DNA of 64,000 nt from Amphiscolops sp. MND2022 (Eukaryota). Position 1 is the first letter of the stretch. Each line of letters opens with the position of its first letter. This document shows, in pieces, positions 6,070-59,900 of this stretch. The position numbers and the translations under genes are program-made. The stretch spans positions 15,068,001-15,132,000 of the forward strand of contig OZ076409.1 in the NCBI GenBank assembly GCA_964187785.1. Reading direction: 5' to 3'. The notes beneath the pieces were generated by a model. The model was not told the origin of the DNA. It saw nothing but the letters and a program-made list of their open reading frames with translations, and did not search any database.

Positions 6070-6072
6070 CTA

Positions 6073-36799: not shown

Positions 36800-37913
36800 T
36801 CACAGTGTGATCCTCTTGATCTTGTACAGTTTGACTTTCAACAGTTTCGTGGGAGGGTTTATCACGTTGTGAAATGTTATCGTTACTATCAATACGTTTT
36901 TCGTGTGGTGATTCTCTGGGAGTAGAAGATTGTTGGCTTCGGCGATTGGTGGCGGAGAGAATGATACACTTCTCAAGAATGATCCATTTCTCACGACTTT
37001 GTTTCCATTCGTAGCGCTTACAATCTCGTATGTACGTTCCCCTTTAATACCAGTTACTACCCAATCAGTACATGGGAAGGTAGGGTCATTTTTGTTGGTA
37101 GGAGGAACGAGAGACCAAACCAAATCTCCGACGTTGAAATCCGTGACTAATGTTCCAGGACTAAAGTTTACCGTCATGGCGTAATTTCATTTGATTTTGA
37201 CATTTCGAATTATCGATATCCGTTCCTTCGGACGTTTTTAACTTTTTAACGGTATATCGGTATTTATTTCGCTATACTGTAACAATAACTCGTTTGTTCG
37301 GCCGGTTGCTGCATGAGGTGTTGCGCGGAAAAATTGTAAAATTTCAGGCAAACGTTCGTGTGTTAAGTCTTTGCAATTTAGCGGCACGAAAAGTGATTAA
37401 GGTAGCTGTGAAGTCGCTCGATTTGACGGTTGGATTTTGCATGTAATGGTGTACAACGTATATGTTCGACATTAACTTTTTCAAGAAAATCACGAAATGC
37501 ATAGCTGGAGACCGTTGTCGGAAACGAGTTTTTGTGGATTTCCAAAACGTGCAAAACAACTTTTGAGGCTTGCATCAACGGCTCTAGTAGCTGCTTCTGT
37601 CAGTTCCTAAACTTCGGGCTATTTTGAGTAGTAGTTTTCAATTGTAAGGTAATGATCGAACTCGAACGAATAAAGATCGATTCCAGTTTGTAACCAAGGT
37701 CCTTCGGGGCGTGTGACGGGAGATAGAGGTAACTCGTCTTGTGGCAAAAGTTTTTGGCAAATACAGCAATCTTTGCACATTTCTTCTACCTCAGATGACA
37801 TTCCGGACAGAAAGACAACGTTTCGAAATTATTGTTTAGTTCGAACAATACCTTGAGGTGAACTATGGGCTTTGATTAGAAAGTCTCGACGAATAGATTA
37901 AGGGATTACTATA
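36800..37913 (-). mobile_element. Older Mag-like Gypsy, integrase half (split by the 37914-53858 insertion)
   Basis: KAHSSPQGIVRTK...GMSSEVEEMCKDCCICQK, PWLQTGIDLYSF...YYSK and TPLHAKSNRQIER. Confidence 0.85.
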
Positions 37914-39663: not shown

Positions 39664-40802
39664 TGGTGACAGGAGCTGACGAAACCCAACAGCCAATTCC
39701 CGAATTCCTGACTGGACGAATCCACTCAATCCCAAACCTGGAGAGGCAACAATCTAACCACAATGTCTCTCTGGACACGACTCTGCCAGCCCCAGACCCT
39801 GAGGTCCCACAGACACCTCAGGACCCGCTTAACAGATTGGCTGATGTACTAGTCAACTTGCAAAACAAACCCCAAACGATGACCATCCGACCGGTCCAAA
39901 CCACACCAATGACATTTGACGGAAAAAGCGAAAAGTTTGAGCTTTTCGAGGACTTGTTCCACACAATGATCAAAATGCAACCGACCATGACAGAGCAAAT
40001 GAAAATCAACCACTTTCATTCTTTGCTCAGAAAAGGAGCATTACAAACCTTCAGGAACATAAACTCAATTAATCGTCAAACCCTTGAGGACGTGTTGATC
40101 ATATTCCGGAGGAAATACGTCAAACCGGAAGCCCAAGCAACGGCAAAACACAAATGGCATCGGTTAACCTTTGATCCGACCACCATGAAACTGCCGGATT
40201 TCTTGGAGGAACTCAACCAGGGGGCAGAAAAAGCATTTGGTGAAAATGCCAAAAACTTGATTGACAGCTTATTGTACGCAAAACTGCCTCCAAAACTCAA
40301 ACGATCTGTCAACATGGCCCGCTTGGAGAACGGTACATACGAAGAGATCGTCGCTCATCTCGAACGAGAGCTTGAACTCAATGCGTTGGAAGAATCAGAT
40401 GACTTACCAATGGCCACAATGGCCTCTGCGTCCACCAGTAATAATAACCTAATATCTAATGGCATAAACACCAACAAGGACGCACAATGCTCTTATTGTA
40501 AAGCCACAGGCCACTTCTATAAGAGTTGCCCCAAATTGAAAAAGAAGAAGGAAGTAGAGGACAAAAATGGCAAAAAGCCCCAACGCCCTACATACCCAGA
40601 ATGCCCTACTTGCGGAAAGAAAAATCACCCCGTTGAGAGATGCTGGAAAGGGGCTGGAGCACATTTACGTCCCAAAAGGACACGTCCTGAAAATAAGGCT
40701 GATGACACCTCTGGAGATGAAAAATCATCCAAGAAGTCAACTAGCCCCGAAACCACATCTTCAAGTCATTCATCTTCTCGAAAAACCGATTCAAAAAACT
40801 AA
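39114..40802 (+). CDS. gag: Gypsy-B gag (562 aa from ATG), first ~183 codons inside the LTR
   Basis: Intact ORF with MTFDGKSEKFELFEDLF and knuckles CSYCKATGHFYKSCP and CPTCGKKNHPVERCW. Confidence 0.93.
   Translation: MPSTRRQKAKARKSREMDMLSDIENMDVMLGNGSNNPIERELVDAIEQSSVQGDIEANEYLGNQYTSFPHENNLPGQDDIRQSLETFSNEFNLRLSQEMDSMMSMVHSQINRAISNAISERVIPEIQNIVSSMSSSGNRDTEASVSPNSQENRECSSGFRPKFTKGDSRSVCDLRDTTGRSHYMVTGADETQQPIPEFLTGRIHSIPNLERQQSNHNVSLDTTLPAPDPEVPQTPQDPLNRLADVLVNLQNKPQTMTIRPVQTTPMTFDGKSEKFELFEDLFHTMIKMQPTMTEQMKINHFHSLLRKGALQTFRNINSINRQTLEDVLIIFRRKYVKPEAQATAKHKWHRLTFDPTTMKLPDFLEELNQGAEKAFGENAKNLIDSLLYAKLPPKLKRSVNMARLENGTYEEIVAHLERELELNALEESDDLPMATMASASTSNNNLISNGINTNKDAQCSYCKATGHFYKSCPKLKKKKEVEDKNGKKPQRPTYPECPTCGKKNHPVERCWKGAGAHLRPKRTRPENKADDTSGDEKSSKKSTSPETTSSSHSSSRKTDSKN
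39664..39675 (+). promoter_or_regulatory. Primer binding site TGGTGACAGGAG (tRNA-Leu-like), within gag coding sequence
   Basis: Immediately after the LTR CA end. One mismatch to the tRNA-Leu-type PBS TGGTGTCAGGAG. Confidence 0.8.
40793..40799 (+). promoter_or_regulatory. Putative -1 frameshift heptamer A_AAA_AAC at the gag/pol junction
   Basis: TCA AAA AAC TAA. The -1 frame is open from here into the pol ORF at 40832. Confidence 0.8.
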
Positions 40803-43800
40803 TTTCGCCACGACTCCAAGTTTCCAACCAGATGTCAGTGCGACAATATGTCATATCTGACCCACCAAACATTATTTATAAACAAACCCAAAACGATACC
40901 ACAGGAATGCCATCGACTGTCTGGCAGCAGCAAATGGCCAACGCCCGCATGGAAACTCAACATATTATCCATAGCGACCACCCATACTTATATAGACGTA
41001 CTAGCTACGACAACGACTCGGAAACTCACTTTCGCCCCTTACAAACTGTCGAAGATTATAACCCTCAATACTATGACCCCGAGTATGGCAAAGACCCGTA
41101 CTGGGACGAAGAACTATATGACAAAACCAATTTACAATTTCGAAATGAAGATTACCCTCCAACTGACGACGAGGACGACCCAGACATTGAAGACAACACA
41201 CTGTCTCGGGCCCTCATTGATCTTTGGCAGCCAAATTTTGATGCAAGAAAACAAGGAGTAGACTCCACTCAACAACAGGAAGGCCACAAAGCCTCTAACA
41301 GCCTTTTAGATGAAACGGCCTTCCTGCATCTCTTAGTGGCCAAGGAAGGAGAGCCGTCCTACTTTCCCCTTTCAACAAACCTTGGGCTCAAATTTAAAAG
41401 ACGAATGCTCTATTTCCCAATGGATTTTGGAGAGTTAACCCTAGACGGCCTAATCGACACTGGAGCCCACTCCAGTGCAATACCGGAAGCAGACCTTAGA
41501 AAGATACGCCTATTGGCCCCCCAGTCGATAGTGAAAGAAGGCCCTGCTCCATCTTTATTTATGGTCCATCCAATTTATGGTCGCAAACGGAGACTTAGAA
41601 ACCCCGAAGAGTACCGTCGAACTAAAGTTTGAAGTGGGTGACATAGAATTTCATGAAATTTTCATTGTAATGGAAAAATTGTCTAGCCCCATAATTGGAT
41701 TGATGTTCCTCCAAAGGAACCACACCGTCCTGGACATGCGCCAAGGTATACTCAACTTTCCCTACTTCTCGATGCAACTAAAGACGGCTGACCATAAATA
41801 CTCGAATGTATTGGAACCCATACTCAACCCTGAGGATATCACATTGCCGCCAAATGACCACGTAGTCATACCTATCCAATCTCAAATCTACGCAGAAAAT
41901 GCAGTTACGGGCATACTACAACCTAGCGATCTTCTGCATGAAGAGGGCGACATAACCTTTTGTGCAGCCATAGTCACACTACATGAAGGAACCATGAAGA
42001 TCCATGTCAACAATTTCACCGATCAACCCTATAAACTCAAGAAAGGGATGCATATTGCAAACTTCTCAGTGATGACTCCCGAACAAATGAAACATGTCAG
42101 GCCAATAGACCCAGTGTCCACTTGGCATTTACTGAACGAAAACGAAGAGGACGCTATTTATTACATTAGTAGCCTCCTTAAAGCCAATAGAAATAATGAC
42201 CAATACCAACAATATTGGTTCCCAACGCCTGAAAATCCCGGGGACGAAACAACTCATACCCCAATACAACAAAGAATTCTCAAAGAATTACGAAATCTGC
42301 AAACTTTAGAACAACTCAACCCACAAGCCGATGAAGAATCTCGCCGAAGATTCCTCAGCAATTTCGATTGGAAAGACTCAATGCTACAACAGCATGAGAT
42401 CAGACAAATAGAAACCCTATTAGTGGAATTCCATGATATCTTTGCGCGCCATAGATTTGACATCGGCGTCAACGAGGAGTTCACGGTCAAATTGACCCCA
42501 AAGGACGAATCACCCGCTTACAGCCAGAGCTTACCTACTACGGTCCACCTTAAAGAGGATATACTGGTCGAACTGGCATTACTCCACAAATATGGAATTA
42601 TTACGACATTACCATTTTCAAAGTATGCCAGTCCCATATTTGCGCAGAAAAAAACCCAATGGTAAACTGAGACTGTTGGTGGATTTGAGGAAAATTAACA
42701 ATCTGATTTCGGATGATTATATCAATAACAACCACCCAGTCAGCACCTTGACGGATGCCGCGCAACATATGGCCGGGAAAAAACTTTTTTGCAAGCTCGA
42801 CTGTTCCCAGGCTTACCACTGCCTACCCATGGCGGACCAGAAATCCATTGAAATGCTGGCCTTTAACTTTGCCAGCAGGACATTTGCATATAGAAGATTG
42901 GCCCAGGGACTCAGTCGAGCCCTGTCGGCCTTCTCCAGTTTTATGAGGGAATATTTGGACCGTGTTATCAAAGCAGACCAATGTGCTCAATATGTAGACG
43001 ATATCGGTGTCGCGGCGACAGACGCTAACCAACTTATCGTCAATTTAAGAGCAACATTTCAATGTATCAGAGAAGCAGGATTGAGACTATCCATGCACAA
43101 GTGCCACTTCGGCGCTACTGAAATCGACTTCCTTGGAAGAACCATTACCCCTGAAGGTGTAAAACCTCAAAAAGAAAGAATTACTAACTTCTTAGAAAAG
43201 ACGAAATTTCCAAAGTCCAAGAAGGCCCTACAACGCTATCTTGGTTTCCTCAACTATTACAGGAATTACATACCAAGATTATCCGAAAAATTAGTTCCTT
43301 TCTTCCAATTACTCAAAAAAGACGAAAAGGTCCTAGTGACTCAAGAATTAGTCGAACAATTTAACGAGATCAACCGAGACCTAGATAAATGCAGTCAACT
43401 AGCATTGAAGCAACCACTGCCCAATAAACAACTAGTCCTCATGACTGATGCAAGTTTTACGGCAGCTGGTTACGCCATACTGACGGAAGATGACCCAAAT
43501 CAGAAATACACTTCTGTCAGAAAGTCCTATGCACCAATTGCGTATGGATCTAAAACTTTTGCCCCTTCTCAACTCAAAATGTCAATATATGCAAAGGAAT
43601 TCCTAGCCATATATTACGCATTCAAGGAATTTGGACACATTTTTTGGGGAACCCCTCAACCCGTGATTATCCTCACGGATAACAAATCGGTCACAAGGTT
43701 CTTCCAAACGAAAATAATCCCACCGCCACTCTAGAATGCCTGTGATTTTGTAATTCAATTCAATTTCGTCATAGCTCACATTCCGGGAAAAAACAATACA

Positions 43801-45915
43801 GCGGCGGATTACCTGTCCAGAATGGAAATGGACCCTACTGAAAAGTTAGTCCTGAAAATTCGCGAGGACGTCGAAACTAGGCCCATAGAAGTCAATGTCC
43901 AATCCGCAGGGGTATCCGAAGAAGAACAAGTCTTCTTTACCGGAGAAGATAACGAAACAGAACAACAGATTTGGGAACGAAAACAGCAATCCAAAAAAGG
44001 ACTCATGGTCCCCGAGACTGTAATTCAAATCGACGCTATATCGGAAAACACCGTCGAGGAAATCACTAACTTCACACAGAAATTACGAAGAACGAACCAA
44101 ATACTGCTCGAACAGTCAAGAGATCCGACTTTGCTCCAACTGAAGGCGAAACTTCAAAAAGAAGAATACTCTGAAGAAATCCTTCAACAAGATATTCGGT
44201 ACAAGTATTACCTCAATAATATCGACCGAATAGTCCTCAAAAACGAAATAGTCACGCGACAGTACTACGACGAAACCGGACAAGTCAAATACCATCAAAT
44301 TTTACTACCAAAGCATCTGCTTAAAGAATTATTACAAGCAATACATGGCACGGCACATCGACACCCAGGCATTTCTAAAATGCTCCAAGAAATTCGTCAG
44401 AAATACTACTACCCCGGAATTGCAAAACACGTCAAAAAATGGGTGGAAGGTTGTGAAACCTGTGCTAAGGACAAAAGGGTCCCCGACAAAGTAATTACCC
44501 CTGAATTACTAAATTTGCCTGAATGGGACCTAGGCCCAGAAGATGCCATGCAGATTGATTTACTACCAAATTTGCCAACCAGCGGTGGATACCAAACAGT
44601 GATGACGGCCATAGATGTATTCTCAAGATATTTATTTGCCTACCCGCTAATTGAAGCAACAGCCACAAATGTAACCAAGGTGATAATTGATATTATGACG
44701 AAACATTCCTGTCTACCGAAAACCCTCATCACCGACAAAGGGTCCGCGTTTACGTCAAAAATTTTAGAAGAAATTGCTAAAATACTGGGCATTACACTAA
44801 AATGCGCCACAACCAAGCATCCGCAAACTATTGGCAAACTTGAAAGGACACACGCCTCTCTAAAAACCAACCTGAAAATGGCCTCAGGGGAATATCGCCG
44901 TCAATGGCACAAATATTTACCATTAGCTGTGCTCAACTATAACACTACTTATCACGCTAGCATTGGTTGTGAGCCTAGCAAAGTATTCCACGGCAGAATT
45001 CCCTACAACGTCCTTGATCATAAATTGGGAAACAACCCTAATAAAAATTTCCTACCGACAACTGAATTTGCGGAAGAATTGCAGCAGAGGACGCAAATCC
45101 TCATTGATCAGACAAAAAAGAATATTATGCAATCGTATTTAAAATACAAAGAGTACTACGACCGCAAAGCCAAAGCAGCTCCGCTACAAGAGAAAGACTA
45201 CTGTTTTGTTCTTCAACCGAAAGCGGATAGTCAAGGCTCTAAGATACCATTTAGGGACTTCCGATGGATTGGTCCCTTTGTCGTTCAAAAAACCTTACCA
45301 AATAACAATTACATAGTGCGTCGTTTAAATACGAATAAAACGCAGATCTTGCACAGGATCAGGCTCAAAAAAATTGTTCCAAATACCCCATTAGAGGACA
45401 AATACAAAGAAGAGAAATTACAGCCTGATGAAGAAATAATAATACCGCAAGATGATTTGTATACCATTTCATGGGACGCGGACTTTGAGTACGAGCTGTT
45501 CGAACAGAAGAAAAATGATTGGCCAGACACGGCCATGCGTCTGCCGCAAGACGCCACAAACAGCGAAGTCGACTATTACGTCACCGAGAATGAAAGCAGC
45601 AGCGCAACCGAAAGTGAGCGCAGCAGCGAAAGAATGAATGATAATGACGTCAACACGAATGAAGTACGGCCGAGATCGGCCAGCAACCGTGACGCGTCGT
45701 CCCCGCTGAGCGAAACGCCACGTGGGACGGAAAATCAAAATGACGTCACAAATGATTTAGAGAATGCGGAAATTGCTTCAGAAAGAGGCGTAGATATTAC
45801 CGTGCCCGGAATATCGGAAAAAGGAAAAAATGAAGAAAATTCTAGCCCTAGAGGAGGGAAATATAATCTTCGACCTAACCCCACCCCCAACTTCACTGAT
45901 GAATACAGATACTAG
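40799..45915 (+). pseudogene. pol: Gypsy-B pol (PR, RT, RNase H, INT) with three lesions: insertion at ~41557-41575, frameshift in the A-run at ~42650, TAG at 43732
   Basis: Motifs LIDTGA, YVDD, MTDAS...AKEFLAI...TDNKS, H-x6-H...CETC, IDVFSRY, TDKGSAF, LERTH and WIGPF. Confidence 0.95.
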
Positions 45916-46140
45916 TCAGACATGTAAATTAAAGTCCCATAAGTCTCTTGGACTAAATTAATATTTTTTACTGGGACTACTCTGACTCTGAACTTTTCAA
46001 ATAAATACAATAAAAAACAACAAAAGAGACCCACTGGTCAACAAGCAATCCACAAAATGCTTCAATAAATAAAAGGAAGATCAGTTGGTTCATGTTAAAT
46101 ACAAAATAACAGACTAAAGAACAAATGTACATATGTACAT

Positions 46141-49100
46141 TTAAGATTTAGTGGCCTTCTGTCCAGCTTCTTGGCCGTCTGTGGTATCCTTCACAGCAAT
46201 GGAGCCATCAAAAGAAACTTTCTTTTTTCCTTTCCCAGGAGAAGATTTACGCCGACCACCTGCAGCAGGAGAACTAGAACGCGAACCAGTCTTACTCGAG
46301 GAAGCTGACCTCGACACTCGGACCACAGATTCGTAAGCGGCATGGAGAGTCTTATAAATATCAGCTCGCCCAAAAGTGTCGACGCCCAAAAGTGTGACCC
46401 AAGGGTCACCAGCCACATTGCCAGAATTGAATTGCTGCTCAACCTCACGATATTTACACAAAGAGACATCGTTAGTGCAAACCGAGATGGCGTCAGGGGC
46501 TCGTGCTAGGAAAGACTGAGCAGGAAGCAACACGTCACCCAATCTACACCGAGGACTCTGTGCGTCAACATCCTGGAAACGGATAGCTGGAAGCAAAGGA
46601 GTGTCCTCTGTCAAGCACAAGCAGCACAATCGAAATAAACGATACAAATGAGGTCGACTTCGGAGCTCAGTCATATTAGACAACAATTCCACCATATCAG
46701 TAAAACCATCAGGCGAATCTTCCAGGGTAGCATACTTTTCGCGAAATAAGTCGACAAATTCGAGGTACTCGTCCCGACAGTCGTCTTCAGAGGATCCTTC
46801 CAACCATCCACGGAGATTGAAGCTTTTATACAGTGCCCGGTAACAATAGGTCGCCTGGTCTCGAGGCAGACTCAAGAGGATGTGCGAGTCAAAACTGGCC
46901 ATTCCCTTCACAATCTCAGCATTGATGCTGTGATGCGCTAGCAGCTTCTCAAGAAGGTAGACGACGTAACCCCTTGCTTTTCCAGCGAACTTCTCCTTGC
47001 ATTCCTCAACGAGTTTGGGGAAATTAGGTATTGGCCCTTCCTTGTCACTGTAGACCCGCTTGACCTTAGAATTAGCAGCTCCATCTAGATCTTCTTTCAA
47101 TTTCAAGCGGTGAACAAAGTCCCTGGAGGAGAGTTGTCGCAATTCAGCAGTTCGCAGAATGGGAAGTTGAGTCCAATCAGTTTCGCTAGGATGGTGCTTG
47201 GGGAGCAAAGAGCGATAGCATAGCTTGCGGGCAAAATTGTTCAACTGCCCAAAGGTGAAGAAACCAGCGTCCCTGTATCCAACTAGACTTCTCTCAAAGC
47301 AACGAATATCTAAACAGAGAAATGGACCTCTGAGCACAAAGCCTTACCCAGTGAGTCCCTGCAAAGAAACTACGTGAACGATCACGAGTAAATTCCCTCC
47401 GAAACAAAAGCAATACTCACAATCATAGATGATCTTTCCAAAGAATTCCAACTTGACTAAGAAGAAGTCATCGGTGATGATAGTCCACTCAAGACTCTGC
47501 GGCTAAAAAGGAAGTCAAGCAATTAATGGATAGTGATCCTGGGGTCGTACGTCATGAGGAGAAAACCGAAACAGGTACAAGGAAAAATTGAAACCTTATT
47601 TTTAACTCCTCGCATTTCGTAGCCAGGGGCAAGTCTAGTCAGGTGGTCAAGAAGAGGCTGCCAGTTACTGATCAGTTCAGTACAAATAGTCGGAATGCAC
47701 CGTATCTTCAATTCAAAGTTGATTATAGCCTAAAAGGAACACTCTGTGCTGTGAGATGCACAAACAATGTGCAAAAATGTGAGTCCAGCAATATTAATTC
47801 AAACCTTGGTCAGTTCTGGGCAAGAAGACATCCAAGGCTCATCTAGACTGTTGTTGAGGAAGGCCAGAAGGTACTTCAGCTGTGTGAAGAAGTCAATTCG
47901 TCCAAACACGCTCCTTTCAAGCTGATGCATTAGCTTGGGAAGAGAAAAGGCATTGAAGCGGAATGGGTACTCGATGCCCTTCTTGAACAGCCCGGAACGC
48001 TCAACTGATCGCAACACCTCAGAAGTACAACCAGATAGACAGGCAATTTGTGGTAGCGTGGAAAGAAAGGACAGTAGACGTGAAATCATCAGCAACTGAT
48101 TGGGGCCCGGGTCCGAAGGCAGAGGGTACTTACACAATTGAACCTTGGCCAGGGTACCCGCCTTCCAGTATCTGATTGAAAGGATGCACTGATTTCCGTG
48201 TGGTTCAAACTCCAGAGAGTATGCGCCGCAGGAATTCACGGACTGGGCTATATCCTCCATTCCGCGCAAAAAGACGTGGTGAAACATGGCCTAGAACAAA
48301 ACGAAATCACCAAAAAATTGGAAAGGACAAACTATGGCTCAACGGACTTAGCGGATTAAGTTACACCTTCAAAAATCATACGCTTGGTGGTCCTAATTTG
48401 TAGAAAGAATGAAAAGACTTACAGTGAGCGTGAGCGAACTCCAATCAAGCTGTCGGAAAGAGTCTTGATGATTGGTGAAATTCCCAACCTCGGCCCACAG
48501 TCCCTCCAGTATAGTCAAATTGTCGAAATGTGGGACCGCTCGTCCAATCAAAGAAAGTTGAGTACCCAGTCTCAAATCTTCGGGGCATGCAATTCCCCCA
48601 GCACTGGCCATATAGTCGTCGTAAAAGGGAAATCTAGGGCCAATATCCACTAATGGAGCCGATTCGAAACGTGGCTTCTCCTTCTCTAGTTCTAGAGCGG
48701 AAAGGAGATGTCCGTCCTTCCCTCTAACTGCATGGACGGTCTGTCCACTGATTTTGTCCACACTACTAAGGTGTTCGTAGCGCCATCGTTGGTCTTTGCG
48801 CAGATGGGTCTGGTAGTGTCACTCTGGTAGTGTCTCACGATTTCTCTGGCCCCTTTGGAATAGATCGACACGTTCGCCTTGCAAATTTGGCAGTAGAATT
48901 TGTGCTTGTTATGCACAGGATCTAGTGGTCCAGTTACGAAAACTTTGGTCCACGGAATACCTTTGAAATAGGCAGCCTTCATGACTTTGCCCGGTCTGCC
49001 TACGAACCTCCGCTTCTTGCGTGGCGGACTGCCTCCAGGTCGTCGTGGTTGGTCTTCTACCCGTATGGCACTTAGAGGTTGATAGTCCCCCTCACTGTAG

Positions 49101-50161
49101 CCTGGACTAGGGACTGTGGTGTGGCTGGTACTAGGAGTCCTGTCCATCTCTTCATCGGAAGTATTTGGGTAGCCAGAACGTTCTCTTGGTAGTGGCGTCC
49201 CACAGCGTGGCCTGGCTGCAACAACGAGCTCATCATCAGGGGTGAGGGCTCCGCTCGTATAATCATCTGTCATTCCTCCCTCACTTTCTGTATCAGCACC
49301 TGAGCTATTGGGACCGCCTCGTGTAGGGACCACGCCTCGAACCATTGATTTCCGGAACTGTCCAGGAGTTTGTTTTCCTGCCCCATAAACAGCATGTAGG
49401 ACAAGGGAGCGCATGGCATGGATGGATGATTTCACAGTTTCATCCGATATGGTTTTGAGGACGGCATGTATCTGCGGCTCACTGAATGAAACAGTACTGT
49501 GACCTTTGGGCAATTCAATTGGGGCAGATGAGGAAAAGTGTTTCCTTAAAACAGCCTGTCCATTAGCCGAGAATCGTTCTGGTAATTTCACCTCTCGGGA
49601 CCCAGACTTTGCGGCTCCAGACGTTGCACCATCTGTATCTTGGCCGGCGGCACCTTCGGTTGCAGATGGCAATTCAGAACAAGTAACGCTTGAGGTAGGA
49701 CGTTTACGTGTTCCTTCCGTACCCATCTCGTCAAGCAGTTCGCCAGCCTCGCTAGTATCAGTGGCAAAGTACTCCTTGCTCTTGTCTCGTGACTCAATTA
49801 AGCTGCCAGTCTCTTTAGAGGTCCCTGGTTGCATTCCGTCGAGTGAGAAGGCTTCCTTTCCTAGACGTTCAAAACCTATCGACTGGGAAACCTTTATGGG
49901 CCCTGCTGTTCCATCTTCAGGTTGTGCCGGTGCCGGGAGAAATGAAATATCCAGAGAAGGATCATCACTAGCCAGTGTCCGTAAAGTTTTCTCCGCATAT
50001 GTGGTTATGCTCTCTTCAGTGTTTCCACTACTGGATGACTGGTTGGAGTCAGGACGCGTTATCACTACTGGCTCCTTTGGTGCTGTATTGGTCTCTTCGG
50101 CAACCCCAGGATTCTCTGATGTTGGAAGAATTGTGCTGGTGACCTGTTCTTCAGACGCCAT
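46141..50161 (-). CDS. Spliced antisense gene inside Gypsy-B, ~1200 aa, BED zinc finger + hAT-transposase-like; coding exons 50161-48423, 48290-47805, 47729-47595, 47502-47421, 47309-46141; one frameshift near 48815 in this copy
   Basis: Four GT-AG introns (48422-48291, 47804-47730, 47594-47503, 47420-47310) with pyrimidine-rich acceptors. Phases 0, 0, 0 and 1 join the separate ORFs without stops. BED-like motif FYCQICKANVSI...GAREIVRHYQS..HL. Confidence 0.85.
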
Positions 50162-51376
50162 GTCTAAATAGAAAGAAATGAATTCAAGCGGCAAGCTTCC
50201 TGAGTTAAAATCCATTAGCCGCGTTAAAAAAATCTTCCGGAAGTAGATTAAATTGAACACTTGTGAACACTTGTGTTACGTGGACAGGAAGTACTTGAAC
50301 GAAAAGAGTGCCCTGATCAAGCCTCAAATTAGTTCAAAAATCTAGCCTAGCTAATGAAAATGTATGAAGAACAACTGACCTGTTAGTATTCCAATGCGGG
50401 GGAGTTGGTTGATGATATTTGTGACAGTAGGTCGTGCCGAACTGACAGCTAGATGGGGACGTCCAAAGTTGGGACTGGATGTCGATTTTCCGGGAGAAGC
50501 TGAGGAAACCCACGGGGATGAGGACGAATGTACACTGAGTCCTGAGTTGAAGACGAATGGAAAATATAAATAAAAATGACTCAAAGACTAAATAATTGGC
50601 TGAATATACGATGAGTAAATACGTTGGTGATTAGATACTGGATAATGCAAGAAGTGAATAGTACAACTAAATGATAAAGAATTGAAAGAAGAATTGGCGA
50701 TGTGACAAGATGTCAAGATTGGAGTTCGTGGCTATACAGTTTGGTGTCCAATTTATAAGTATTTACAATTTACGGTAATACGTGGATAAAGTCTGCCAGC
50801 GATATCTACACTTTCCATTTATTTCGAAAACTTACAAAATTATTTTACAAAATTATTTCATTATTTTATGTTATTTTATTTTATTTTATTTTCAAGGTCA
50901 TTTTATATCATTCCTTATATGGATTCACGACCTTGAGAAGCCATTTTAACTTGGTAGAAATTTTGCTGCAATCTTATTGGTTGATCATATTGATGAAGGC
51001 CGGCGTGGCTGACTGCCATAACTTTACCTCCTTGAGACTCTCAAGTACCTGATGAGTGTTAATAAACACTTGAGGTAACTCTCCTAACTTAGAAGTATTA
51101 GCCTAGCTGATGATAGTCAATAATTTGATGATAGTTTGTATTTGATGTCGGCAATTACAAAGTGTCTTGGCGGCATGATAAAAGAACTCGAGAAGTGGAA
51201 TCAGTTATTGTAGAGTTACTTGCCGGGAAATGTGAAAACCCGGGAAAGGAGAAACGAAGAGACTCGTGGTCGAAGGAAACTGAGATCGCCATAATCTCAA
51301 TTTCTCTACTTAAAATCAGTTGAATTCCAACAGGAAAATAATCAAAATTGCAAAGAAAATCTTCAAAATCCGAGCT

Positions 51377-52189
51377 ATGTCAGACATCTCTGAGACTTTC
51401 CCGATGGACTTCATCGGAGCAGCAAGATCAGAAGGGGAACCGGCAATCATATACATCTCTAGTGACGAAGAGGAAGCGATGGACTCGAATTGTGGGTGCT
51501 CTGTGGATGACTTGTACTTGTCGTCCGAAGACGAATCAGACGAGGTTAGGCTCATGGCTAAATGCATTGAGAGACAACTTGCAGAGCCCATATCAATTCC
51601 TTCAACCTCAGCCAGTCAGACGCAGAAATGACCTGTGACGACCAGACCAAGTGTGCCACCATTTCCTACCTTTGGGGAGAAGTACTTCGACTTGGCAAGA
51701 GGAAATGGGCCTGTAAGTCGGGACAACAGGATCAAATCTAACCACCCCATAAATATCTGCCGAAAACTAGTGCCGCAAGTGGACACCCCGCTATCTCCGC
51801 CTGAACAGGACAGAGGACTTCAATACCTATGTGAGCCTCATGACGATTCACCATCCTCCATGAACACGTCAATGGAAGCGTTGGCAAGTCATTTCGACGA
51901 GATGGTCCTTGCCGAGCCACCCTCCTTAGTCAACTACTCAGACTGCATAATATGCGGGAAACCAGTGCAACAAATTCAAGAAGAGACCGTCAACGAATAC
52001 CTGGACAAGACAGTAACTGTAGGAGAGACTTTAGCTGAGACTCAGGCAAGGAGGAGGGCATTCCTAGATGGCATGAACGCAGGCGCTTTTCTACTTATGC
52101 CAGGGGAGTGTCGCGGGCTGCCGCCTGCGACGGCAATTGGTACTCAATCGGATACAATTACAATACTCTCCCTGGTACCCTCCCAATGA
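51377..52189 (+). CDS. Gypsy-B sense accessory ORF (~270 codons, one in-frame TGA at 51629) crossing the PPT into the 3' LTR
   Basis: ORFs 51320-51631 and 51635-52189 share a frame. Acidic N-terminus IIYISSDEEE and a CIICGK motif. No transmembrane or Env features. Confidence 0.6.
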
Positions 52190-53858
52190 ACTGAGGAATG
52201 GACTATTAGTCCGAAAGCCTAAGAAGACAAACTACAAACTTATCTTATTATGATTGATTTCGCATATGTTGATATAAGTATATCATTTTATTCGGGGCTT
52301 TTATATTACTGAAATTTGAAATGCTTTGGAATAATTATCCGGAATTAGCCATGTAAAGTATGTAGTTGAAAGTTGAATATAGTGTATTAATACATGTATA
52401 ACAGTGATAGATATATACCACGGTTGAGAAATTGGACACCAAGGCGAACAGGTAAAGGAAACGAAATCAAATGTTTCCTCTCCTGTCTCGCTAGACGCGC
52501 TGTCCGTCCAATTTCTCAACCAATCACAGTGCACTGTTCAATTGCTCGCTTATTCACTCCTGTGCTGTATTCTAAATTAAAGGACTCAAGGGCCACACGC
52601 CACCACAACGACACTACTTTTGTATTAAATAAAGGCGCGTGGACACTGAGTCCAAAGTAGAATAAAAGAGGTGCGTATATCGAAATTAATAATGTACTAT
52701 CTCAGGAGCGGTATATTTACTCTGATTGGACATCTGTCACCTTGATTACAAAAGGACCATTAGTCCTTTCCCCCCTCTTTTTGTGTTCTCCTATTTTCCA
52801 GAACTTCCTGGATAGAAAGTCAAAATGAGCTGTTTGTATCTTAAGAAGCCACAAAGGACAGCTCAATGTTCACACACCATCTTTGCATGTATTAATTCCA
52901 TATGATTTAGCATGTATTGTTTTACATGAAGTGTTGCTACTGAAACTCAATTGGATGGCCTAAAGGGGCACATGTACATCTTTGAATGTAACTACTTCAT
53001 ATATGTAGAAGCACGTAAATCATTTACGTCATGGTTGTTGCTATTTTTAGTATTACGATAATATACTTGTAAAGACACGTTGTATGTTGTGTCTATTTTT
53101 AGAATACCTGTTACTGAAATTAGACTGATGACTACCACTATTATGCATGTCATGTTTGGTTGATTATAAATAACCGGGACCCGTTGTCCCGGGGATATAA
53201 TTTTCCTATGACAAGTCACAGTCAGTTCGCTGTTAAAATACCGAATACAATACTGTTTGCAAGCTTAAAGATTCCAATTCAAATTCTTTCCTCTTGCAAC
53301 AATCTCTTATGCCTTCTACGAGACGTCAAAAGGCGAAAGCTAGGAAATCTAGAGAAATGGACATGCTGTCCGACATAGAAATTATGGACGTAATGCTAGG
53401 CAATGGGAGTAATAACCCCATAGAAAGGGAATTAGTCGATGCCATTGAACAATCATCAGTACAAGGAGATATTGAGGCGAATGAATACCTGGGAAATCAG
53501 TATACTAGTTTTCCTCATGAAAATAATCTTCCTAGACAAGATGACATAAGGCAATCCCTTGAGACCTTTTCAAACGAGTTCAATCTTAGACTGTCACAGG
53601 AAATGGATTCAATGATGTCTATGGTGCATAGTCAGATAAACAGGGCAATTAGCAATGCTATCTCTGAGAGAGTCATTCCTGAAATCCAGAACATCGTGAG
53701 TTCTATGTCTTCCTCAGGAAATAGGGACACTGAGGCTAGTGTTTCTCCAAATAGCCAGGAAAACAGGGAATGTTCATCCGGGTTCAAGCCTAAATTTACA
53801 AAAGGAGACTCACGGTCCGTGTGTGATTTAAGAGACACAACAGGTCGTAGTCATTACA
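52109..53858 (+). repeat. Gypsy-B 3' LTR (1750 bp), carrying a second copy of the gag N-terminus (ATG 53309)
   Basis: Direct repeat of 37914-39663. ORF 53294-53944 matches gag up to GRSHY and then reads into the flank. Confidence 0.97.
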
Positions 53859-53863
53859 CTATA

Positions 53864-56560
53864 GCCCCGTCCTTTAATGATATGTCATCCACTATTGTTA
53901 ATGCGTCCCTAAAACGGTACCCAGTTCAAAAGTTTTCTTTATAATATGTGTTTTACAATTCATTTTGAATAGCTGCTGTCAGTGATTGGATTTCTTTGTC
54001 GGCTAATGTGGCGTCACGAAATTTTCTGGAAGAATTCGACCCACATGATCTGACGAGGCCAACCTTGAATTCGTTTTCGATTTCTGACTCATCATTCAAT
54101 GCGGATTTGTGAAGCCTTGAGAGAACGTCAGCTATACTAGCGGGACCAGGTTGGAATGTCAGTTCGAAGTCGTAGTCGGCACAGTGGTCAACTATATTGA
54201 CCGTATATATATATAAAGTATTTTCGTAAGCAGATCCTGTTTGCTTATTAAATACTCCGAGTAATGGTTTATGGTCCGTAACAACTGTAAATCGTTTCCC
54301 ATAAATATAGTTATGACATTCGATGAGTCCGTTATATATTGCTAATGCTTCAGGTTCGATTTGAGCATAACGCTGCTCTACTTCGGAAAATACCTCAGAA
54401 CTGTAAAATGCGGGTATCCAGTTGTTTCCATCCTTCTGCAAGGAAACTGCACCGGATGTGCAGGGCGATCCATCGACAACTAATCTCTGCTCAGCTTCTG
54501 TTCTACAGAATGTGAGGGAGGGTAAACTAAATATCACAGATTTGGCCTTCCGAAAAGCACTTTCATGCTCTGGTTTCCACGTCCAATTCGTATTCTTTTT
54601 GTTGAGTTTCTGTAATGGTTCTCGAATTGATGCCATGTTTGGTGCTTATTGCTGCAGAAAGCTTATCGAACTAAGGTATGAACGTAATTGGCTTAGATTT
54701 TTAGGTTGCAACATATTAGTAATGGCTTCGACTTTTTGGGGGTCAGCACGTACGCCTGAATCTCCAACGACATGTACCAAAAATTTGATCTCACGCTTTG
54801 GGAATTCGCATTTCTTCGGGTTAAGTGTTACACCATCTTCTGCCATACGTTCTTAGACAGCGTGAAGTCTCCTATTGTGTTCTTCTTGAGTTCTTCCATG
54901 AACGACGACGTCGTCTTGTAGTTTGCCGACACCTTCCAGACCCTGTTATACCAAATTCATAAGCGGATCCATCGCGTCGGATGCGGCTTTCATACCGAAC
55001 TGTATCTTTTGAATCTGAAGAGGCGTGCAAATACAGCCAAAGTTGTGTTTTAACGGGTTTCTTAATTCAATTTGCCAGGAACCTTTTTTCATTTCCTGCT
55101 TTGAGAAGTATTACTGCCAGAGAATTGTGTTAGCAAATGTTCAACTTTCGACAGTGGGTAATGATGACGTATATTGGCTTTGTTGACTTGCCGCAAATCT
55201 ATTGTCAACCGCGGTTCCTTGGATTCGTTTAACACTTTTTAAACTGGACTGATCCAGCGACTTTCAGAACATTCTTCAATAATGTCCATAAACAACATCT
55301 TTTTAATTTCGTCTTTAGTCCAAGATTGAACGGCAGAGGCGGAAACACATTCTTTCTGGGCAATAGTTGTTGCATTTGTGTGAATCTGTTAATCGTAGCT
55401 AAATTTCTTGATGGGTTCGAGATTTTCGCGAAACAACTGCAGATAGTTCTTGAGTACCTCGACCGTCTGCATTGTGTTTGCAGAATCTGGGGCGCTAGAT
55501 TTAGCTGAGGTGTGCAATACTTTTATTGCGCCGTCGATTAATGCCCAATCGCGTGCGGCAACGAGTGCCATCAGTGGCTTATCATCTTCATCCATGACGT
55601 AAAAAACCGTTGTAATATGGCGACCAGATAGTGAAAGATTCGCATGACCGTATCCTTTGAATGTCATCGCTGGCTAAAGTTGGTGCTTTGCTTTACCAAT
55701 TCCCGGTGAAAAAGATAATGGTATAATAGAATATTTCGAACCTGTGTCAACTTGCATTGGTAGTTCAACTCCGTCGATTTTGGGTGATACAGACCATGAG
55801 TCAGAATGATGATTATCAATTTTACCAACAACCTCGTAGAACTGGTCGCTAGTATATGGTTCATCGATAATTGTCGAGAAGCTCGATGATTCTATTTCTC
55901 TTGTGCCAGTTTCTTCCTGCAAACAGAATCGAAATGTCCTTTCTTATTGCAGAATCGACAGGTAGAAATCTTAGCCTTACATTCAGCAGCTCCACGAAAA
56001 TGTCCTGCTTTACCGCAAGCAAAGCATTTGTTGTCACTGCTCGTCTTTTCGGAATTTGGCTTCGGAAGTGGCACTTTTTCGAATGCTTTGTAACGCTTTT
56101 CGATATTGTTGAGGTCTTCGGGTTCATCATTGCAGCACTTTTTTGAGTTTGTTCGAAGGTACGAGCAATCGTCATTGCCTTTTCCAATGTCAAACCGTCG
56201 CCTTCCGTGAGAAGTTATTCTCGAATTTTTGGATTATGACATTTTTCAATGATTCGACTGATAATCTGATCCTTTCTGTCAGCGAAACTGCATGTTGTTC
56301 CCAGCTTTCGTTGTTCTGATACGAATTTGTCGGTACTCTACTGAGGCTGTTGAATGCGACATTTAAATCGATATCGCTCTGCCCAATCGTTGCCTTTGGG
56401 AGCAAAGACTTCGTGCAGTTAATCTTTCACATGCTTGACGGTCGTTTTGTCTCCGGCAAGGTTATCAAGAATTGACTGAACAGCTGGACTTGCTAGAAGG
56501 CGCACGGTTGCGCGTTGGACTTTAACAGCTTCGTCATTGAAGGAACTGTAAGTTCGGCGA
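53864..56560 (-). mobile_element. Older Mag-like Gypsy: gag, PR, RT, RNase H half (decayed)
   Basis: TLEKAMTIARTFE, double knuckle CFACGKAGH...CRFCNKKGHFDSVC, MQVDTGS, LNPKKCEF, VDGSP...RYAQIEPEALAI...TDHKPL. Joins 37913 as LKDGAI|VIP once Gypsy-B is removed. Confidence 0.9.
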
Positions 56561-56964: not shown

Positions 56965-59900
56965 TTATTGACTACCCGGAGAATCAGAAGGTGGGAGAAC
57001 GGGTGCAAAGTTGACGATGGGTCGAACCAGGTTTCCTGTTGTTGTCTTCAGTTCTGCAGAGCAGGCGACTGAGTCGGGTCCGTAGTTCAACTTAACCACA
57101 CGTGCAAGTAAGTATTGTCCTCGTGGGCTCGTGTGCTCGACAATCCAGACAAGATCTCCGGTCTTCAGGTCTCGATCTGATTGGGCAGACCACTTTGAAC
57201 GACGATTAAATAAAGGGACGTATTCTCTTAACCAGCGTTCCCAATTAGCATCGGAGTATGCTTGAGCACGAACGTAGCGCTTACGGTGGTCAATGTCGGC
57301 TCGTTGGTGGGAAGGCATACTGGAGCCGCCCGCCAACAGGAAATGGCTCGGGGTCAGAGCATCGAAATCAGTTGCATCTAAACTTACCGGTACAAGTGGA
57401 CGGGAATTAGGACTCTGCTCGACTAAACAAAACGTTGTTGCCAGAATTTCATCAGTTATTCGACGGTTTCCAAGAATGGCGTAGAAGACGTGTTTAAAAC
57501 TCCTAACAATACGTTCCCAAACACCTCCGTGGTGGGGAATACCGGGAGAATTAAACTTCCATTGGTTCCGTTTTTTCACCAACGTTTCTGACAAGGCCTG
57601 TTGGTTCCAAAATGAAACTTTTTGTAACCACTCCTTCTCACCGGCGAAAAAATTTGTTCCATTTTCAGACCACAAGACCGATGGAGTGCTCCTGAGGGCA
57701 ATGAAACGCTTTATTCTCATCACACAACTACTGGTATCCATCGATGGGACAACTTCAAAGGTAACAGCTCTAGTATAGTAGTAAGACAGATGAAAAGGAA
57801 ACCCCATCGTTTTTCTGTTGACCTTTTAACAGAAACATAGAAAGGCCAGAAGTAGTCGATGCCAGTATTAGTGAAAGGAGGTTCTCTTTAAGCTAGTCTT
57901 TCCGACATGTTACACACTTCGAGACTACTGTCCGCAGGGCTGCTCCAAGTTTGACGATAGCGAAATAATGCTGCACTAACGCCCTCAAATAGTCAACACC
58001 TTGGTGACAGTGTGTTTGATTGAGATGTTCTAGGAAAAGCCGGATAACAGGATGTCGGCTATCGAGTGGAACTGGAGATTTGGCATCAAAGTTGGACACT
58101 TCGAGTTGCTTCGTTCGACCTGTTGCTCGCAAGAGTCCATGCGGCCCAATGAAGGGGGATGATTGGAGGATCTTGGAAACACAGCGAAGTGGGGACCCCC
58201 GCAATAGACTCGTCTTATCCGTATAGAAAGACTCTTGTTGCACATGGTAGAAAAGTCTGCGTTGAGCATTCTCTAGTTCTCAAGGATCAGTGATAGAACC
58301 CGATATGGAACGGTATGTTTTATTTTTGGCAGTAAACGCAAAGTGTAGGCAACAACGCGCAGGAGTTTTTCATAGGAGCTGTACGTTCAAGCTGCCAATC
58401 AAGAGTTGATTCGCTGTTGGCTACTGTTACACTCAACGCAGTCTCAGTTTCAAAAGTAATGTGATCGCTTTTAAGTCTCAGTTTCAAATGTAATGCGATC
58501 GCCTTCGAAAAGGTCTGGCGTTTTTGCTTTCAGTTGGAATCTAACGTTTGTTGGTGGTTCAAATTGCCAGTCGGATGTTTTCAAGAACGTGGGTCCGGTG
58601 AGCCAAGGGCTATCACGAGAAGACTTGACCCAAAATCCGCGTGTCCCAGCATCGGCCGGGTTATCGCTTAACTTCACCTCGTTCCATTGTTGACCGTACT
58701 AAGTTCCAGGATCTCTGCTACACGGTTGGTAACGAAGACCGGCTGCTTTTCTAACGAGTGCAGCCAGTGCAGACCCGTTGTGCTGTCAGTATAATGAAAA
58801 TCGTGTCGATCTGCATCGTGAGGGCGTTTTGAATATCTCTTCGGAGCCGTGCTGCAAGCAAGGAGGCTTGTAACTCGAGCTTGGGTATTGTAAGTGATTT
58901 CATAGGTGCCACTCGCGCCTTCATGTAGACGAATGCTAGTTTGGTACTGGTACAGTTACCATTCGTTACTTTTCTTTTCCTCGTAAAAAAGCGACAGCGC
59001 TGAAAAACCTCTTGTGAACTATCAACAAACATGTGAAGCTCCAGTGATTCCACACTGCCTTCGAAATAGCTCTGGGAATTCCAATTTTGCCCAATGTTGG
59101 TAACTCTTTGCTCCATTCAATGAACTTGGTTAGGAGTTCATCGGGTAGGTCACCGTCCCATTGTTGACTCACTTAATCTCCAGATGTCTTTCAACAATAC
59201 CCTGGCTTGCACGGTGTAAGGAGCACGAGGCCATTTGGGTTGTCTTTTTGGTAGTGCCTCGACTCACTACAAGTGTATCAGATGAGTGATTCCACTCAAG
59301 TCCCAAAACATGGGAACACTTGTCAGCACTCGGTATCGCTTTTTCTTGATTCGGTGTCGAATTTGGTTCGAGCTCGGTTGGAAGCTGATCTACGTTTGAA
59401 ACGAACTTGGTTAAATTGAATCCACATTTGCCTGTAGTTTTACTAGATTTTTCGCTTCGTTGCTGGCTTCTTCCACGGTAGGACTTGATTCCAAGTAGTC
59501 GTCCATGTAGAAATATCTGTGGACACTTAGAGCTGCTTGCGGAAAGTCGCTTTGATAGTCGGTACCAGTGCATTTCAGGGCGTAGTTGGCGCACGTAGGC
59601 GAGTCTTTGGAACCAAAGATATGTCGGGTATATTGGTAGACAGCCATTTCGGAAGCTGGACCTTCCCGCCACGAGAAACGAAGTGACGGTCGATCGCGCG
59701 AAATAACTCCAACTTGCATAAACATTCCCTCAATGTCTGCGCAGACGGCACACTTTAACTGCCAGAAACGGAGTGAAATGTGGATTAAACTTTGCAGCGA
59801 ATCCGGTCCGGTTAACAAGGCGCTGTTCAGAAATTGAACCTGAAATTTTGCTGCTCCGTTCAAAACTCTTCTGACTTCGCCAGGTTTTTGAGGGTGAACA

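Follow-up and report, generated by a model that had tools for sequence, protein, structure and literature searches.

The element and its predicted antisense gene

The window, as the whole 64-kb stretch of DNA analysed here is called, contains a complete LTR element of 15,945 bp (37914-53858) with 1750-bp LTRs and a 5-bp target duplication (Table 1). The LTRs differ by 23 mismatches in 1750 bp when compared without gaps, identity collapses at base 1751, and a PPT-like polypurine tract ends the stretch ahead of the 3' LTR at 52109. In Pfam, RVT_1 (1e-23) and RT_RNaseH (1.8e-16) fall in the ORF at 42496-43734, and Integrase_H2C2 (9.6e-16) and rve (8.8e-12) in the ORF at 43735-45915; the ORF preceding RT matches only dUTPase (1.7e-5), no protease family was matched in the Pfam scan, and the DUF1759 match of the gag region lies under its Pfam cut-off. 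By its LTRs, its target duplication and its pol domains in the order RT, RNase H and integrase, the element is of Ty3/Gypsy type; the Pfam families PF17917, PF17919 and PF17921 are usual for Gypsy-type pol. The pol of the window carries an in-frame stop at 43732-43734, a position that is a sense codon in seven of seven other copies. BEL/Pao elements (Peptidase_A17, DUF5641) are present in the window as well and, since this group is not known outside Metazoa, the host is very probably an animal.

Table 1. Features of the element and of the predicted antisense gene (window positions)
Feature	Position	Strand	Basis
5' target-site duplication CTATA	37909-37913	.	same 5 bases directly flank both element ends
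5' LTR, 1750 bp, TG...CA	37914-39663	+	ungapped identity to 52109-53858
gag-pol ORF set: gag (DUF1759-like), protease region with dUTPase-like domain, RT, RNase H, integrase	39042-45915	+	Pfam
Primer-binding-site-like sequence, starts TGG, directly 3' of 5' LTR	39664-39680	+	read from sequence
Spacer between the two convergent stop codons, 225 bp; probable 3' UTR of antisense gene	45916-46140	.	AGTAAA on minus strand
Exon 5 with stop; helical C-terminal domain	46141-47309	-	ORF joining, relatives, AlphaFold
Intron 4, 111 bp, GT..AG	47310-47420	-	same length in 20/20 copies; homologous position used in divergent families
Exon 4, 82-nt micro-exon, 27 codons	47421-47502	-	recognisable peptide between AG and GT in 5/5 divergent loci
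Intron 3, 92 bp, GT..AG	47503-47594	-	junction motifs, kept in 20/20 copies
Exon 3, 45 codons	47595-47729	-	ORF joining, divergent families
Intron 2, 75 bp, GT..AG	47730-47804	-	kept in 20/20 copies; 66-125 bp in divergent families
Exon 2, 162 codons; first half of putative RNase H-like fold	47805-48290	-	model of homologue P0268
Intron 1, 132 bp, GT..AG	48291-48422	-	kept in 20/20 copies; 70-128 bp in divergent families
Exon 1: start codon, disordered N-terminal half, KKRR, C2H2-like zinc finger, conserved region	48423-50215	-	alignment of homologues
Non-coding stretch, 1.9 kb, gene start to 3' LTR	50216-52108	.	no long ORF
3' LTR, 1750 bp	52109-53858	+	LTR self-match
3' target-site duplication CTATA	53859-53863	.	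flank comparison

A predicted gene of five exons lies in the interval from the end of pol (45915) to the 3' LTR (52109), on the opposite strand and tail-to-tail with pol. Its position within an LTR element had been proposed in an earlier note made from the letters alone, and the LTRs, target duplication and pol domains bear this out; the four introns stand where that note had placed them, with all nine of its quoted junction motifs found once each. From 48818, with these introns spliced out, the minus strand runs without a stop for 755 codons until 46143-46141, and retention of any single intron leads to an early stop. The single frame of about 1200 amino acids that had been proposed holds for other copies, in which it measures 1192 or 1196 codons from the ATG at 50161, and fails for the window copy, where the sequence spliced from that ATG is 3611 nt long (2 mod 3) and meets its first stop at codon 490 because of an 8-bp tandem duplication in exon 1 (48819-48812) that is absent in 11 of 11 other aligned copies. 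A further splice acceptor ahead of the same ATG has to be given up: the region is coding, and the start codon is the ATG at 50215, which opens an 18-residue peptide with the pattern MDxxSGSxPxxFISFxL, conserved in distant homologues. Splicing, promoter and polyadenylation site are all predictions from sequence. The stretch at 50216-52108 presumably holds the 5' UTR together with a putative antisense promoter, and AGTAAA at 45972 on the minus strand, kept in 14 of the 20 copies, is a candidate polyadenylation signal.

The predicted product has about 1210 residues. Its N-terminal half is disordered and rich in acidic residues and serine; also recognisable are a basic KKRR motif, a C2H2-like finger and an RNase H-like core, and the C-terminal domain is helical. 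Both the KKRR motif and the finger pattern, C-x2-C...H-x5-H, are conserved, and zf-C2H2_ZN292 gives a sub-threshold Pfam match in 40 of 50 family members; no Pfam family reaches threshold in the window's exon ORFs or in the 92 relatives scanned. A named relative was found in none of the sources searched. The protein belongs to a large family without a name in the sources reached, exon 5 having 454 HMMER relatives at E<=1e-3 (counted as representatives of 50%-identity clusters). The AlphaFold model of exon 5 is all-alpha, with pLDDT >90 for residues 11-230, and exon 2, modelled in the homologue P0268, has the order b1-b2-b3-a1-b4-a2 with pLDDT 77-91. For the middle part, whose model has a mean pLDDT of 54 and was built on the ORF of a homologue in which intron 1 is read through, the top Foldseek match is Hermes transposase (E 5.2e-3, probability 0.95). 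The best structural matches, namely Hermes, retroviral integrase cores and RNase H, are all weak, with Z at or below 7.0, and suggest an RNase H-like core in the exon 2 region. Where its first two carboxylates would be expected, the 11 sequences covering exon 2 have LEFE (strand 1) and SG(C/F) (after strand 4), a mapping made on a partial model in which the third residue is unplaced; on this model the core appears to be without the DDE carboxylates.

Copies, selection and divergent gene types

The stretch from pol to LTR (45916-52108) is listed at 26 places, the window and 25 others, with 87-99% identity; two of the 25 are pieces of one copy on one contig, and the 25 are those scored among 2343 candidates of a first look. 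Sister elements thus share the segment at no fewer than 25 further places, and a one-off insertion, which the earlier note had allowed for, is not what they suggest. Twenty copies were aligned, 12 of subfamily A (the window included) and 8 of subfamily B; the pol and LTR flanks both align in the 12, and the pol flank in the 8. Eleven of the 20 have an unbroken spliced frame, 3/12 in subfamily A and 8/8 in subfamily B, the window copy being among the nine broken ones of subfamily A. Between the subfamilies, overall dN/dS is 0.12-0.13; it falls to 0.04-0.08 across codons 400-1000 and is highest, at 0.36, in the first 200 codons. Given the overall ratio, and given GT..AG at all four introns in 20/20 copies, the conservation of introns and frame at the level of sequence exceeds chance. 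Both splice-site conservation and dN/dS below 1 in the exons had been anticipated, as had faster-evolving introns. The last of these expectations is borne out in part: introns have lower nucleotide identity than exons between subfamilies (83-91% versus 88-94%) but do not outpace synonymous sites (K of introns 0.18-0.24 versus dS 0.36-0.45). Multicopy pol-gene-LTR order, kept introns and purifying selection together support the proposal that the gene is stable cargo of an animal Gypsy lineage. Copies are also found nested within other retroelements and in arrays that repeat every ~14.1 kb; first-look candidates in this one genome run into the thousands, and many of its families have open frames.

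Five much more distant families of the same genome, at 35-67% protein identity, have the same four intron positions with differing intron lengths, intron 1 always lying immediately after a conserved exon end. A convergent gag-pol, 72-97% identical to that of the window, lies beside the gene in four of the five (L022, L024, L025, L028). The L021 locus is without pol, being disrupted there by other repeats, and a second copy of its family, L028, has pol. In the remaining family (L023/L029) only the last ~45 codons of integrase are left and the exon-5 frame is open at both copies; L023, the one locus where the whole gene was fetched, has E1, E2 and E5 in collinear order. Measured from the window copy, integrase dS is 0.50-0.60 to subfamily B, L022, L024 and L028 alike, while the gene stands at dN of about 0.05 from subfamily B and at 40-67% protein identity to L022, L024 and L028. 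The 1.1 kb upstream of the gene (50700-51800) has the opposite pattern, with 90-99% identity to elements in which the gene itself reaches no more than 40-67%. On these comparisons the gene comes in deeply diverged types on very similar gag-pol backbones, which points to exchange of cassette types by recombination and to a type-specific function.

A probable resident accessory gene and its alternatives

The explanation that we favour, and hold with good though not complete confidence, is that the five-exon gene is permanent Gypsy cargo, spliced from an antisense transcript, encoding a non-catalytic accessory protein that acts in trans and comes in exchangeable cassette types. The four introns would function only in the antisense transcript; the sense genomic RNA would carry their unspliceable reverse complements, and reverse transcription would therefore copy the whole exon-intron gene into each new insertion. 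Transcription would start either in the LTR or at a separate promoter within the 1.9 kb that part the start codon from the 3' LTR, and the transcript would be spliced four times and end in the 225-bp spacer before pol. The protein itself would bind nucleic acid and serve the life cycle of its own element, for example by controlling transcription or by shielding the element from silencing. By analogy, it is probably a regulatory or accessory factor acting in trans, in parallel to retroviral regulatory genes and to the antisense genes of the plant Retand and Grande elements; the DNA-binding and regulatory role is argued in this way because no Pfam family reaches threshold.

Two more specific roles deserve consideration, each of them unlikely in our estimate. 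The protein might be an integration-targeting or tethering factor, with its finger and RNase H-like core contacting particular chromosomal DNA or chromatin and its helical domain binding integrase or capsid; the cassette types would then differ in target preference. The gene adjoins integrase and is kept on otherwise alike gag-pol backbones, its deeply diverged types would suit differing specificities, and the nested and arrayed copies would fit; the pol-less L023/L029 family with its open exon-5 frame, however, suits a factor acting in trans and is silent on targeting. About equally improbable is a counter-defence factor that blocks small-RNA or repressor-based host silencing of its own element, with an arms race keeping many old cassette types, as a parallel to the VANC anti-silencing proteins of plant VANDAL transposons. 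The gene does differ far more between lineages than does gag-pol at the same synonymous distance, its N-terminus is the fastest part, and the abundance of candidates and open-frame families in one genome is what such a contest might leave behind, but selection between the close subfamilies is purifying rather than diversifying.

Very improbable is the capture by the retrotransposon of an active DDE transposase (hAT-like or of a new superfamily) that would offer it, or some other DNA, a second, cut-and-paste route, even though Hermes leads the Foldseek matches of the middle part and the order of zinc finger, RNase H-like fold and helical domain recalls a hAT transposase. The residues at the first two catalytic positions, as placed on the model, speak against it, as do the want of flanking terminal inverted repeats and the hhalign comparison (alignments A3 and A2) with four full-length hAT transposases of the same genome, which gave a probability of 0.3-0.4% against a hAT profile that is thin at 4 sequences. 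Dimer_Tnp_hAT (PF05699) and zf-BED are likewise absent from the Pfam scans of exon ORFs and relatives; PF05699 has at least 150 matches elsewhere in this genome. Scarcely credible at all is a one-off, be it a host gene or foreign element with a retrotransposon fragment on either side by accident, or ORFs that arose by chance. The window copy is indeed broken in gene and pol, and its protein has no Pfam family; yet the whole unit is enclosed by matching LTRs and a target-site duplication, the same pol-gene-LTR order recurs in the further copies, and there are hundreds of relatives. The one-off or chance-ORF reading is contradicted by these, by the kept introns and by dN/dS.

Accessory genes are what sets complex retroviruses apart from simple retrotransposons, and antisense accessory genes outside vertebrate retroviruses have so far been described mainly in plants. 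If the resident accessory gene is accepted, an animal element family keeps a five-exon antisense gene under purifying selection and provides a natural instance of the rule that antisense introns outlast reverse transcription, and the cassette-like variety seen over a conserved gag-pol suggests a testable role in specificity. Since gene predictors will report copies as host genes, those who annotate invertebrate genomes should know of such elements. More broadly, and quite tentatively, one may imagine an old and very abundant animal Gypsy lineage of retrovirus-like complexity, in which a spliced antisense regulatory gene has been built on a dead RNase H-like/DDE scaffold with a zinc finger, and in which ancient interchangeable cassettes each set specificity. 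The cassette type might then decide, for example, which LTRs are switched on or kept from being silenced, or the site of integration. In that case the protein family would be new, and so would the class of accessory function that it represents among animal retrotransposons.

Comparison with known systems

In the literature searched, antisense extra ORFs were found in plant Gypsy elements only, with no animal case. According to the main texts of PMC11963269 and PMC7264820, plant Gypsy elements of the Tat lineage (Retand, Grande, RIRE2) carry in most copies, in the region from pol to the 3' LTR, a conserved ORF that runs antisense to gag-pol; its product is regarded as a nuclear or DNA-binding regulator, and non-autonomous derivatives exist. 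The long stretch from pol to 3' LTR with such a conserved ORF is common to these and to the present element; here, however, the host is an animal and not a flowering plant, and the gene has four conserved introns, a word that occurs nowhere in the main texts of PMC11963269 and PMC7264820. Neither the exon ORFs of the window nor the 92 relatives scanned matched Transposase_28 (PF04195) at E<=1. Among animals, bdelloid rotifer LTR retrotransposons have likewise captured genes in addition to gag and pol (env, DEDDy, GDSL and other ORF3 types), and the available text of PMC5408684 has 'antisense' once, for small RNAs only, has no 'intron', and describes no antisense multi-exon gene. With hAT transposases and their domesticated derivatives, the protein shares the order of zinc finger, RNase H-like fold and large helical region, although its finger matches only zf-C2H2_ZN292, below threshold, two aspartate positions appear on the model not to be kept, and the gene is carried by a retrotransposon.

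HBZ of HTLV-1 is a minus-strand regulatory gene near the 3' LTR, expressed from a spliced antisense transcript; it encodes a small bZIP protein of a vertebrate retrovirus and has one intron, its first exon lying within the 3' LTR. The gene described here is similarly a minus-strand gene of a retroelement near the 3' LTR, with predicted splicing, but it has a predicted protein of about 1210 residues, four introns and a Gypsy-type retrotransposon as its carrier, and no bZIP family appears in any Pfam scan of the window's exon ORFs and relatives. Finally, the antisense-intron indicator cassettes of retrotransposition assays are engineered reporters, whereas the present gene would be a natural one that uses the same principle to keep its introns.

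Architecture of the antisense gene and its host element

The Gypsy-type element is bounded by a direct repeat whose two copies differ by 23 mismatches and beyond which similarity is lost entirely. The LTRs start with TG and end with CA, a TGG... primer-binding-like sequence follows the 5' LTR, a purine run lies just before the 3' LTR, and CTATA stands on both sides of the whole 15,945-bp unit. Plus-strand coding sequence between the LTRs comprises gag (with a sub-threshold DUF1759-like match), a dUTPase-like domain, reverse transcriptase (RT), RNase H and integrase, and the antisense gene is placed tail-to-tail with pol, 225 bp from the pol stop. Given the LTRs, the CTATA flanks and the gag-pol between the LTRs, the antisense gene lies inside a complete, slightly damaged element. 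The pol of the window copy carries an in-frame stop where all seven other copies compared have a sense codon. The dUTPase match (PF00692, E 1.7e-5, 25 bits against a cut-off of 22) falls upstream of RT in the pol ORF at 41535-42665 (+), an ORF in which no aspartic protease family was matched. The stop-to-stop ORF containing gag, 39042-40802 (+), starts within the 5' LTR, about 620 bp in, and crosses the LTR end at 39663, and its start recurs in the 3' LTR at 53237-53944 (+).

Other retroelements crowd the window (1688-7572, 9567-15913, 53953-54645 and 56965-62964) as one Gypsy-like gag-RT-integrase set and two BEL/Pao-like sets (Peptidase_A17, DUF5641, DUF1759). BEL/Pao elements are known only from animals, and the host is therefore very probably metazoan. 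A Gypsy-like RNase H fragment adjoins the insertion of the studied element, and an assembly gap of 200 N occupies 34419-34618.

Coordinates of the host element and of the antisense gene in the window
Feature	Position	Strand	Basis or remark
5' LTR	37914-39663		direct repeat, 1750 bp
Stop in pol, window copy	43732-43734	plus	in frame
Exon 5	47309-46141	minus	junction strings; stop 46143-46141
Exon 4	47502-47421	minus	junction strings
Exon 3	47729-47595	minus	junction strings
Exon 2	48290-47805	minus	junction strings
Exon 1, from ATG 50161	50161-48423	minus	junction strings
Duplication in exon 1, window copy	48819-48812	minus	8 bp, tandem
3' LTR	52109-53858		direct repeat, 1750 bp

The earlier note had proposed an antisense gene with four introns joined into a single frame. 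The introns are where they were placed: each of the nine quoted junction strings is found a single time on the minus strand, where expected, giving introns of 132, 75, 92 and 111 bp. The frame holds in part, as 755 codons are open from 48818 to the stop once the four introns are removed and retention of any single one brings an early stop, but the window copy as a whole (spliced length 3611 nt from ATG 50161) is broken, with a stop at codon 490. This is because of the tandem duplication in exon 1, which is absent from the other 11 aligned copies of subfamily A, the closer of two sets of copies. What had been taken for a further acceptor ahead of the ATG is coding sequence, ATG 50215 opening 18 more codons, whose peptide (MDxxSGSxPxxFISFxL) is kept in relatives only 30-40% identical overall. 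Judged from the sequence, splicing at the four introns is likely to proceed as predicted. A plus-strand open frame of 222 codons opposite exon 1 (49503-50171) is probably a by-product of exon 1 composition.

Copies, selection and the wider family

In the window's own genome (1.07 Gb), a search with 45916-52108 gave 2343 first-look candidates, and among the 25 scored at least 26 matching places, window included, could be counted. At least 15 further places are full-length at 94-98% identity, at least 8 match at 87-88% over the first 5350 bases, and one copy lies in two pieces on a small contig. Sister elements thus carry the segment, with at least 25 other places matched, the pol end aligned in 20 copies and the LTR also in 12. 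Those 12, window copy included, form subfamily A, in which the segment is flanked by an alignable pol end and LTR; in the 8 copies of the more distant subfamily B alignment extends to the pol end but fails over the 0.85 kb leading up to the LTR and over the LTR. Exon-5 matches recur every ~14.0-14.3 kb at C9:14566428-14623317 (five units) and, with the same spacing, at C11:38662439-38692071 and C5:3368640-3398013 (three units each), a step close to the length of an element less one LTR (14,195 bp for the window copy), which suggests tandem arrays of elements with common LTRs.

Conservation of the splice sites, as had been expected of a stable structure, is complete among the aligned copies: GT..AG is found at all four introns in 20 of 20, with intron lengths the same or off by no more than two bases. 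An uninterrupted spliced frame is present in 3 of 12 copies of subfamily A and in all 8 of subfamily B. Between the subfamilies dN is 0.047-0.054 and dS 0.36-0.45, an overall dN/dS of 0.12-0.13 that bears out the expected constraint on the exons and ranges from 0.36 in the first 200 codons to 0.04-0.08 in codons 400-1000. The companion expectation of faster introns is borne out by identity (83-91% in introns, 88-94% in exons at the nucleotide level) but not by rate, as intron K (0.18-0.24) lies below dS (0.36-0.45). Neutral introns would not be expected to show this; possible reasons are a constraint acting on the genomic RNA of the sense strand and a methodological bias. That the antisense gene is real and element-borne can be held with high confidence; it is a stable cargo, inherited with its introns and under purifying selection.

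Beyond these copies the gene belongs to a much wider family. With exon 5 as query, 454 relatives were found at E<=1e-3 and 71 at E<=1e-30 (representatives of 50%-identity clusters), and the conserved end of exon 1 retrieved 196 clusters at 90% identity. All the relatives found derive from ENA assemblies, and none bears a name, accession or Pfam family, names and accessions having been looked up for ten clusters. Most are ORFs the size of an exon, with a start close to the acceptor of intron 4 or an end shortly beyond the donor of intron 1, and no longer, fused or annotated form was found among them. A scan of JGI metagenomes with the exon-1 alignment gave 342 pattern matches, of which none was confirmed. 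Two relatives used as own-genome queries yielded 7620 and 7721 first-look candidates (105 and 108 scored); the genome holds many further families of the antisense gene, most scored matches having open frames of 390-426 codons. One database relative, P0181, has a 100% match in this genome and comes from it or from a near relative, whereas the best match of another, P0214, among those scored is 52%, which suggests that it comes from another organism.

Five divergent loci fetched from the same genome, 35-67% identical in protein to the window's type, show how far the exon plan is kept. Exons 1, 2 and 5 are collinear in all five; exon 3 was found in four by a first search, that of L023 appearing only with a more sensitive one, which alone also recovered the 27-codon exon 4 in all five. 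Donors and acceptors lie at homologous positions while intron lengths vary (intron 1, 70-128 bp; intron 2, 66-125 bp). A convergent pol stands directly after the gene in L022, L024 and L025, with protein identities to the window's of 90, 95 and 72% for integrase and 96, 95 and 90% for RT, respectively. L021 was considered as a pol-less family and rejected, its pol side being broken up by other repeats and the second copy of the family, L028, having gag-pol (integrase 97%, RT 95%, protease region 95%, gag 92%). Within the window's own genome, the antisense gene is thus linked to gag-pol across deep divergence. The two copies L023 and L029 of the fifth family keep only the last ~45 integrase codons after the gene, followed by short tandem repeats at L023 (places of this pol-poor family: L023/L027, C1:35.41-35.43 Mb; L029, C2:29.33 Mb). 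The exon-5 frame is open at both copies, and exons 1, 2 and 5 are collinear at the one locus fetched whole. This family is probably a non-autonomous derivative that keeps the antisense gene without pol, a retention consistent with a factor that is of use even where other copies supply gag-pol.

Discordant histories of the modules

Divergence within the element differs from module to module. Compared with the window copy, integrase dS is much alike across the lineages, at 0.58-0.60 in subfamily B, 0.57 in L022, 0.50 in L024 and 0.50 in L028, with dN/dS of 0.03-0.06 throughout; yet the antisense gene of subfamily B is nearly the same (dN ~0.05), and that of the other lineages compared has only 40-67% protein identity. 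The non-coding upstream module at ~50700-51800 (1.1 kb), which might serve as a promoter or cis element, shares 90-99% identity with L021, L022 and L024, but over 51709-51165 only 54-65% with subfamily B, even though the gene of the latter is ~90% identical. Given these opposed patterns, integrase, gene and upstream module must be regarded as three modules, each with a history of its own. On the simplest reading, co-existing elements recombined and old types of the gene survived as cassettes, deeply diverged types carried on similar gag-pol. Lineage-specific bursts of fast evolution may be another account of the same divergence.

The protein, its possible working and known parallels

Features of the protein were read from the undamaged exon 1 translation and from alignments. 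An N-terminal half that is variable, acidic and rich in serine is joined by a conserved SPPRKxRR motif, a putative nuclear localisation signal, by a C-x2-C-x16-H-x5-H finger with conserved aromatic residues ahead of it, and by a highly conserved stretch up to the exon-1 donor. Pfam gave a single signal, a sub-threshold zf-C2H2_ZN292 in 40 of 50 members; no Pfam family reached threshold in the exon ORFs or in 92 relatives, and PDB gave no match by sequence or profile. A model of exon 5 found nothing at E<=1e-3 with Foldseek against PDB or against a viral structure library, and the ESM Atlas gave weak leads (zf-BED and zf-C2H2_12 at 0.88; the middle part at 0.75). For the middle part a model of P0268 was used, a database ORF that reads through intron 1 (mean pLDDT 54). 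Its exon-2 part, at pLDDT 77-91, has the order b1-b2-b3-a1-b4-a2 of an RNase H-like fold, and Foldseek placed the Hermes transposase first (E 5.2e-3, probability 0.95), followed by HIV integrase cores and MLV RNase H. These modest scores may be read as showing the fold class, RNase H-like, and not the family. With LEFE and SG(C/F) at the expected places of the first two DDE aspartates, a conventional active site appears unlikely on this partial model. An origin from hAT transposases was rejected (hhalign against four full-length hAT transposases of the window's genome, probability 0.3-0.4%), as was one from the element's own integrase (0.7%), and no inverted repeats flank the antisense gene.

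Antisense introns are not recognised in the genomic RNA of the element and so pass through reverse transcription. An antisense promoter would lie inside 50216-52108 or in the 3' LTR, and polyadenylation would take place in the spacer beyond the gene; an AGTAAA at 45972 is kept in 14 of 20 copies. The product would be nuclear, nucleic-acid-binding and non-catalytic, acting in trans on the transcription, silencing or integration of the element. That this action is regulatory or anti-silencing, and not targeting or of some other kind, can be put forward only tentatively.

The interpretation as cargo made in the earlier note is upheld with two corrections, concerning the frameshift of the window copy and where the start codon lies, and is extended by a modelled RNase H-like fold, by a very large family with conserved intron positions and by a cassette-like discordance with gag-pol. 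Among known systems, HBZ of HTLV-1, a spliced antisense gene, is a second parallel. A search of the full-text literature, whose coverage stops short of subscription journals, Repbase reports and bioRxiv supplements, returned no antisense extra gene in an animal. For rotifer LTR elements with extra ORFs, no antisense or intron-containing extra gene was found in the available portion of the source, where the single mention of 'antisense' concerns small RNAs and 'intron' is absent (PMC5408684); an annelid survey merely cites the plant work on antisense ORFs (PMC8220671). In the plant elements Retand, Grande and RIRE2, as far as the available portions of the sources extend, introns go unmentioned and the protein is TRP28 or none, unlike the one described here, but their antisense ORFs are the closest counterparts, with the same position, the same orientation and the same suspected role (PMC11963269, PMC7264820).
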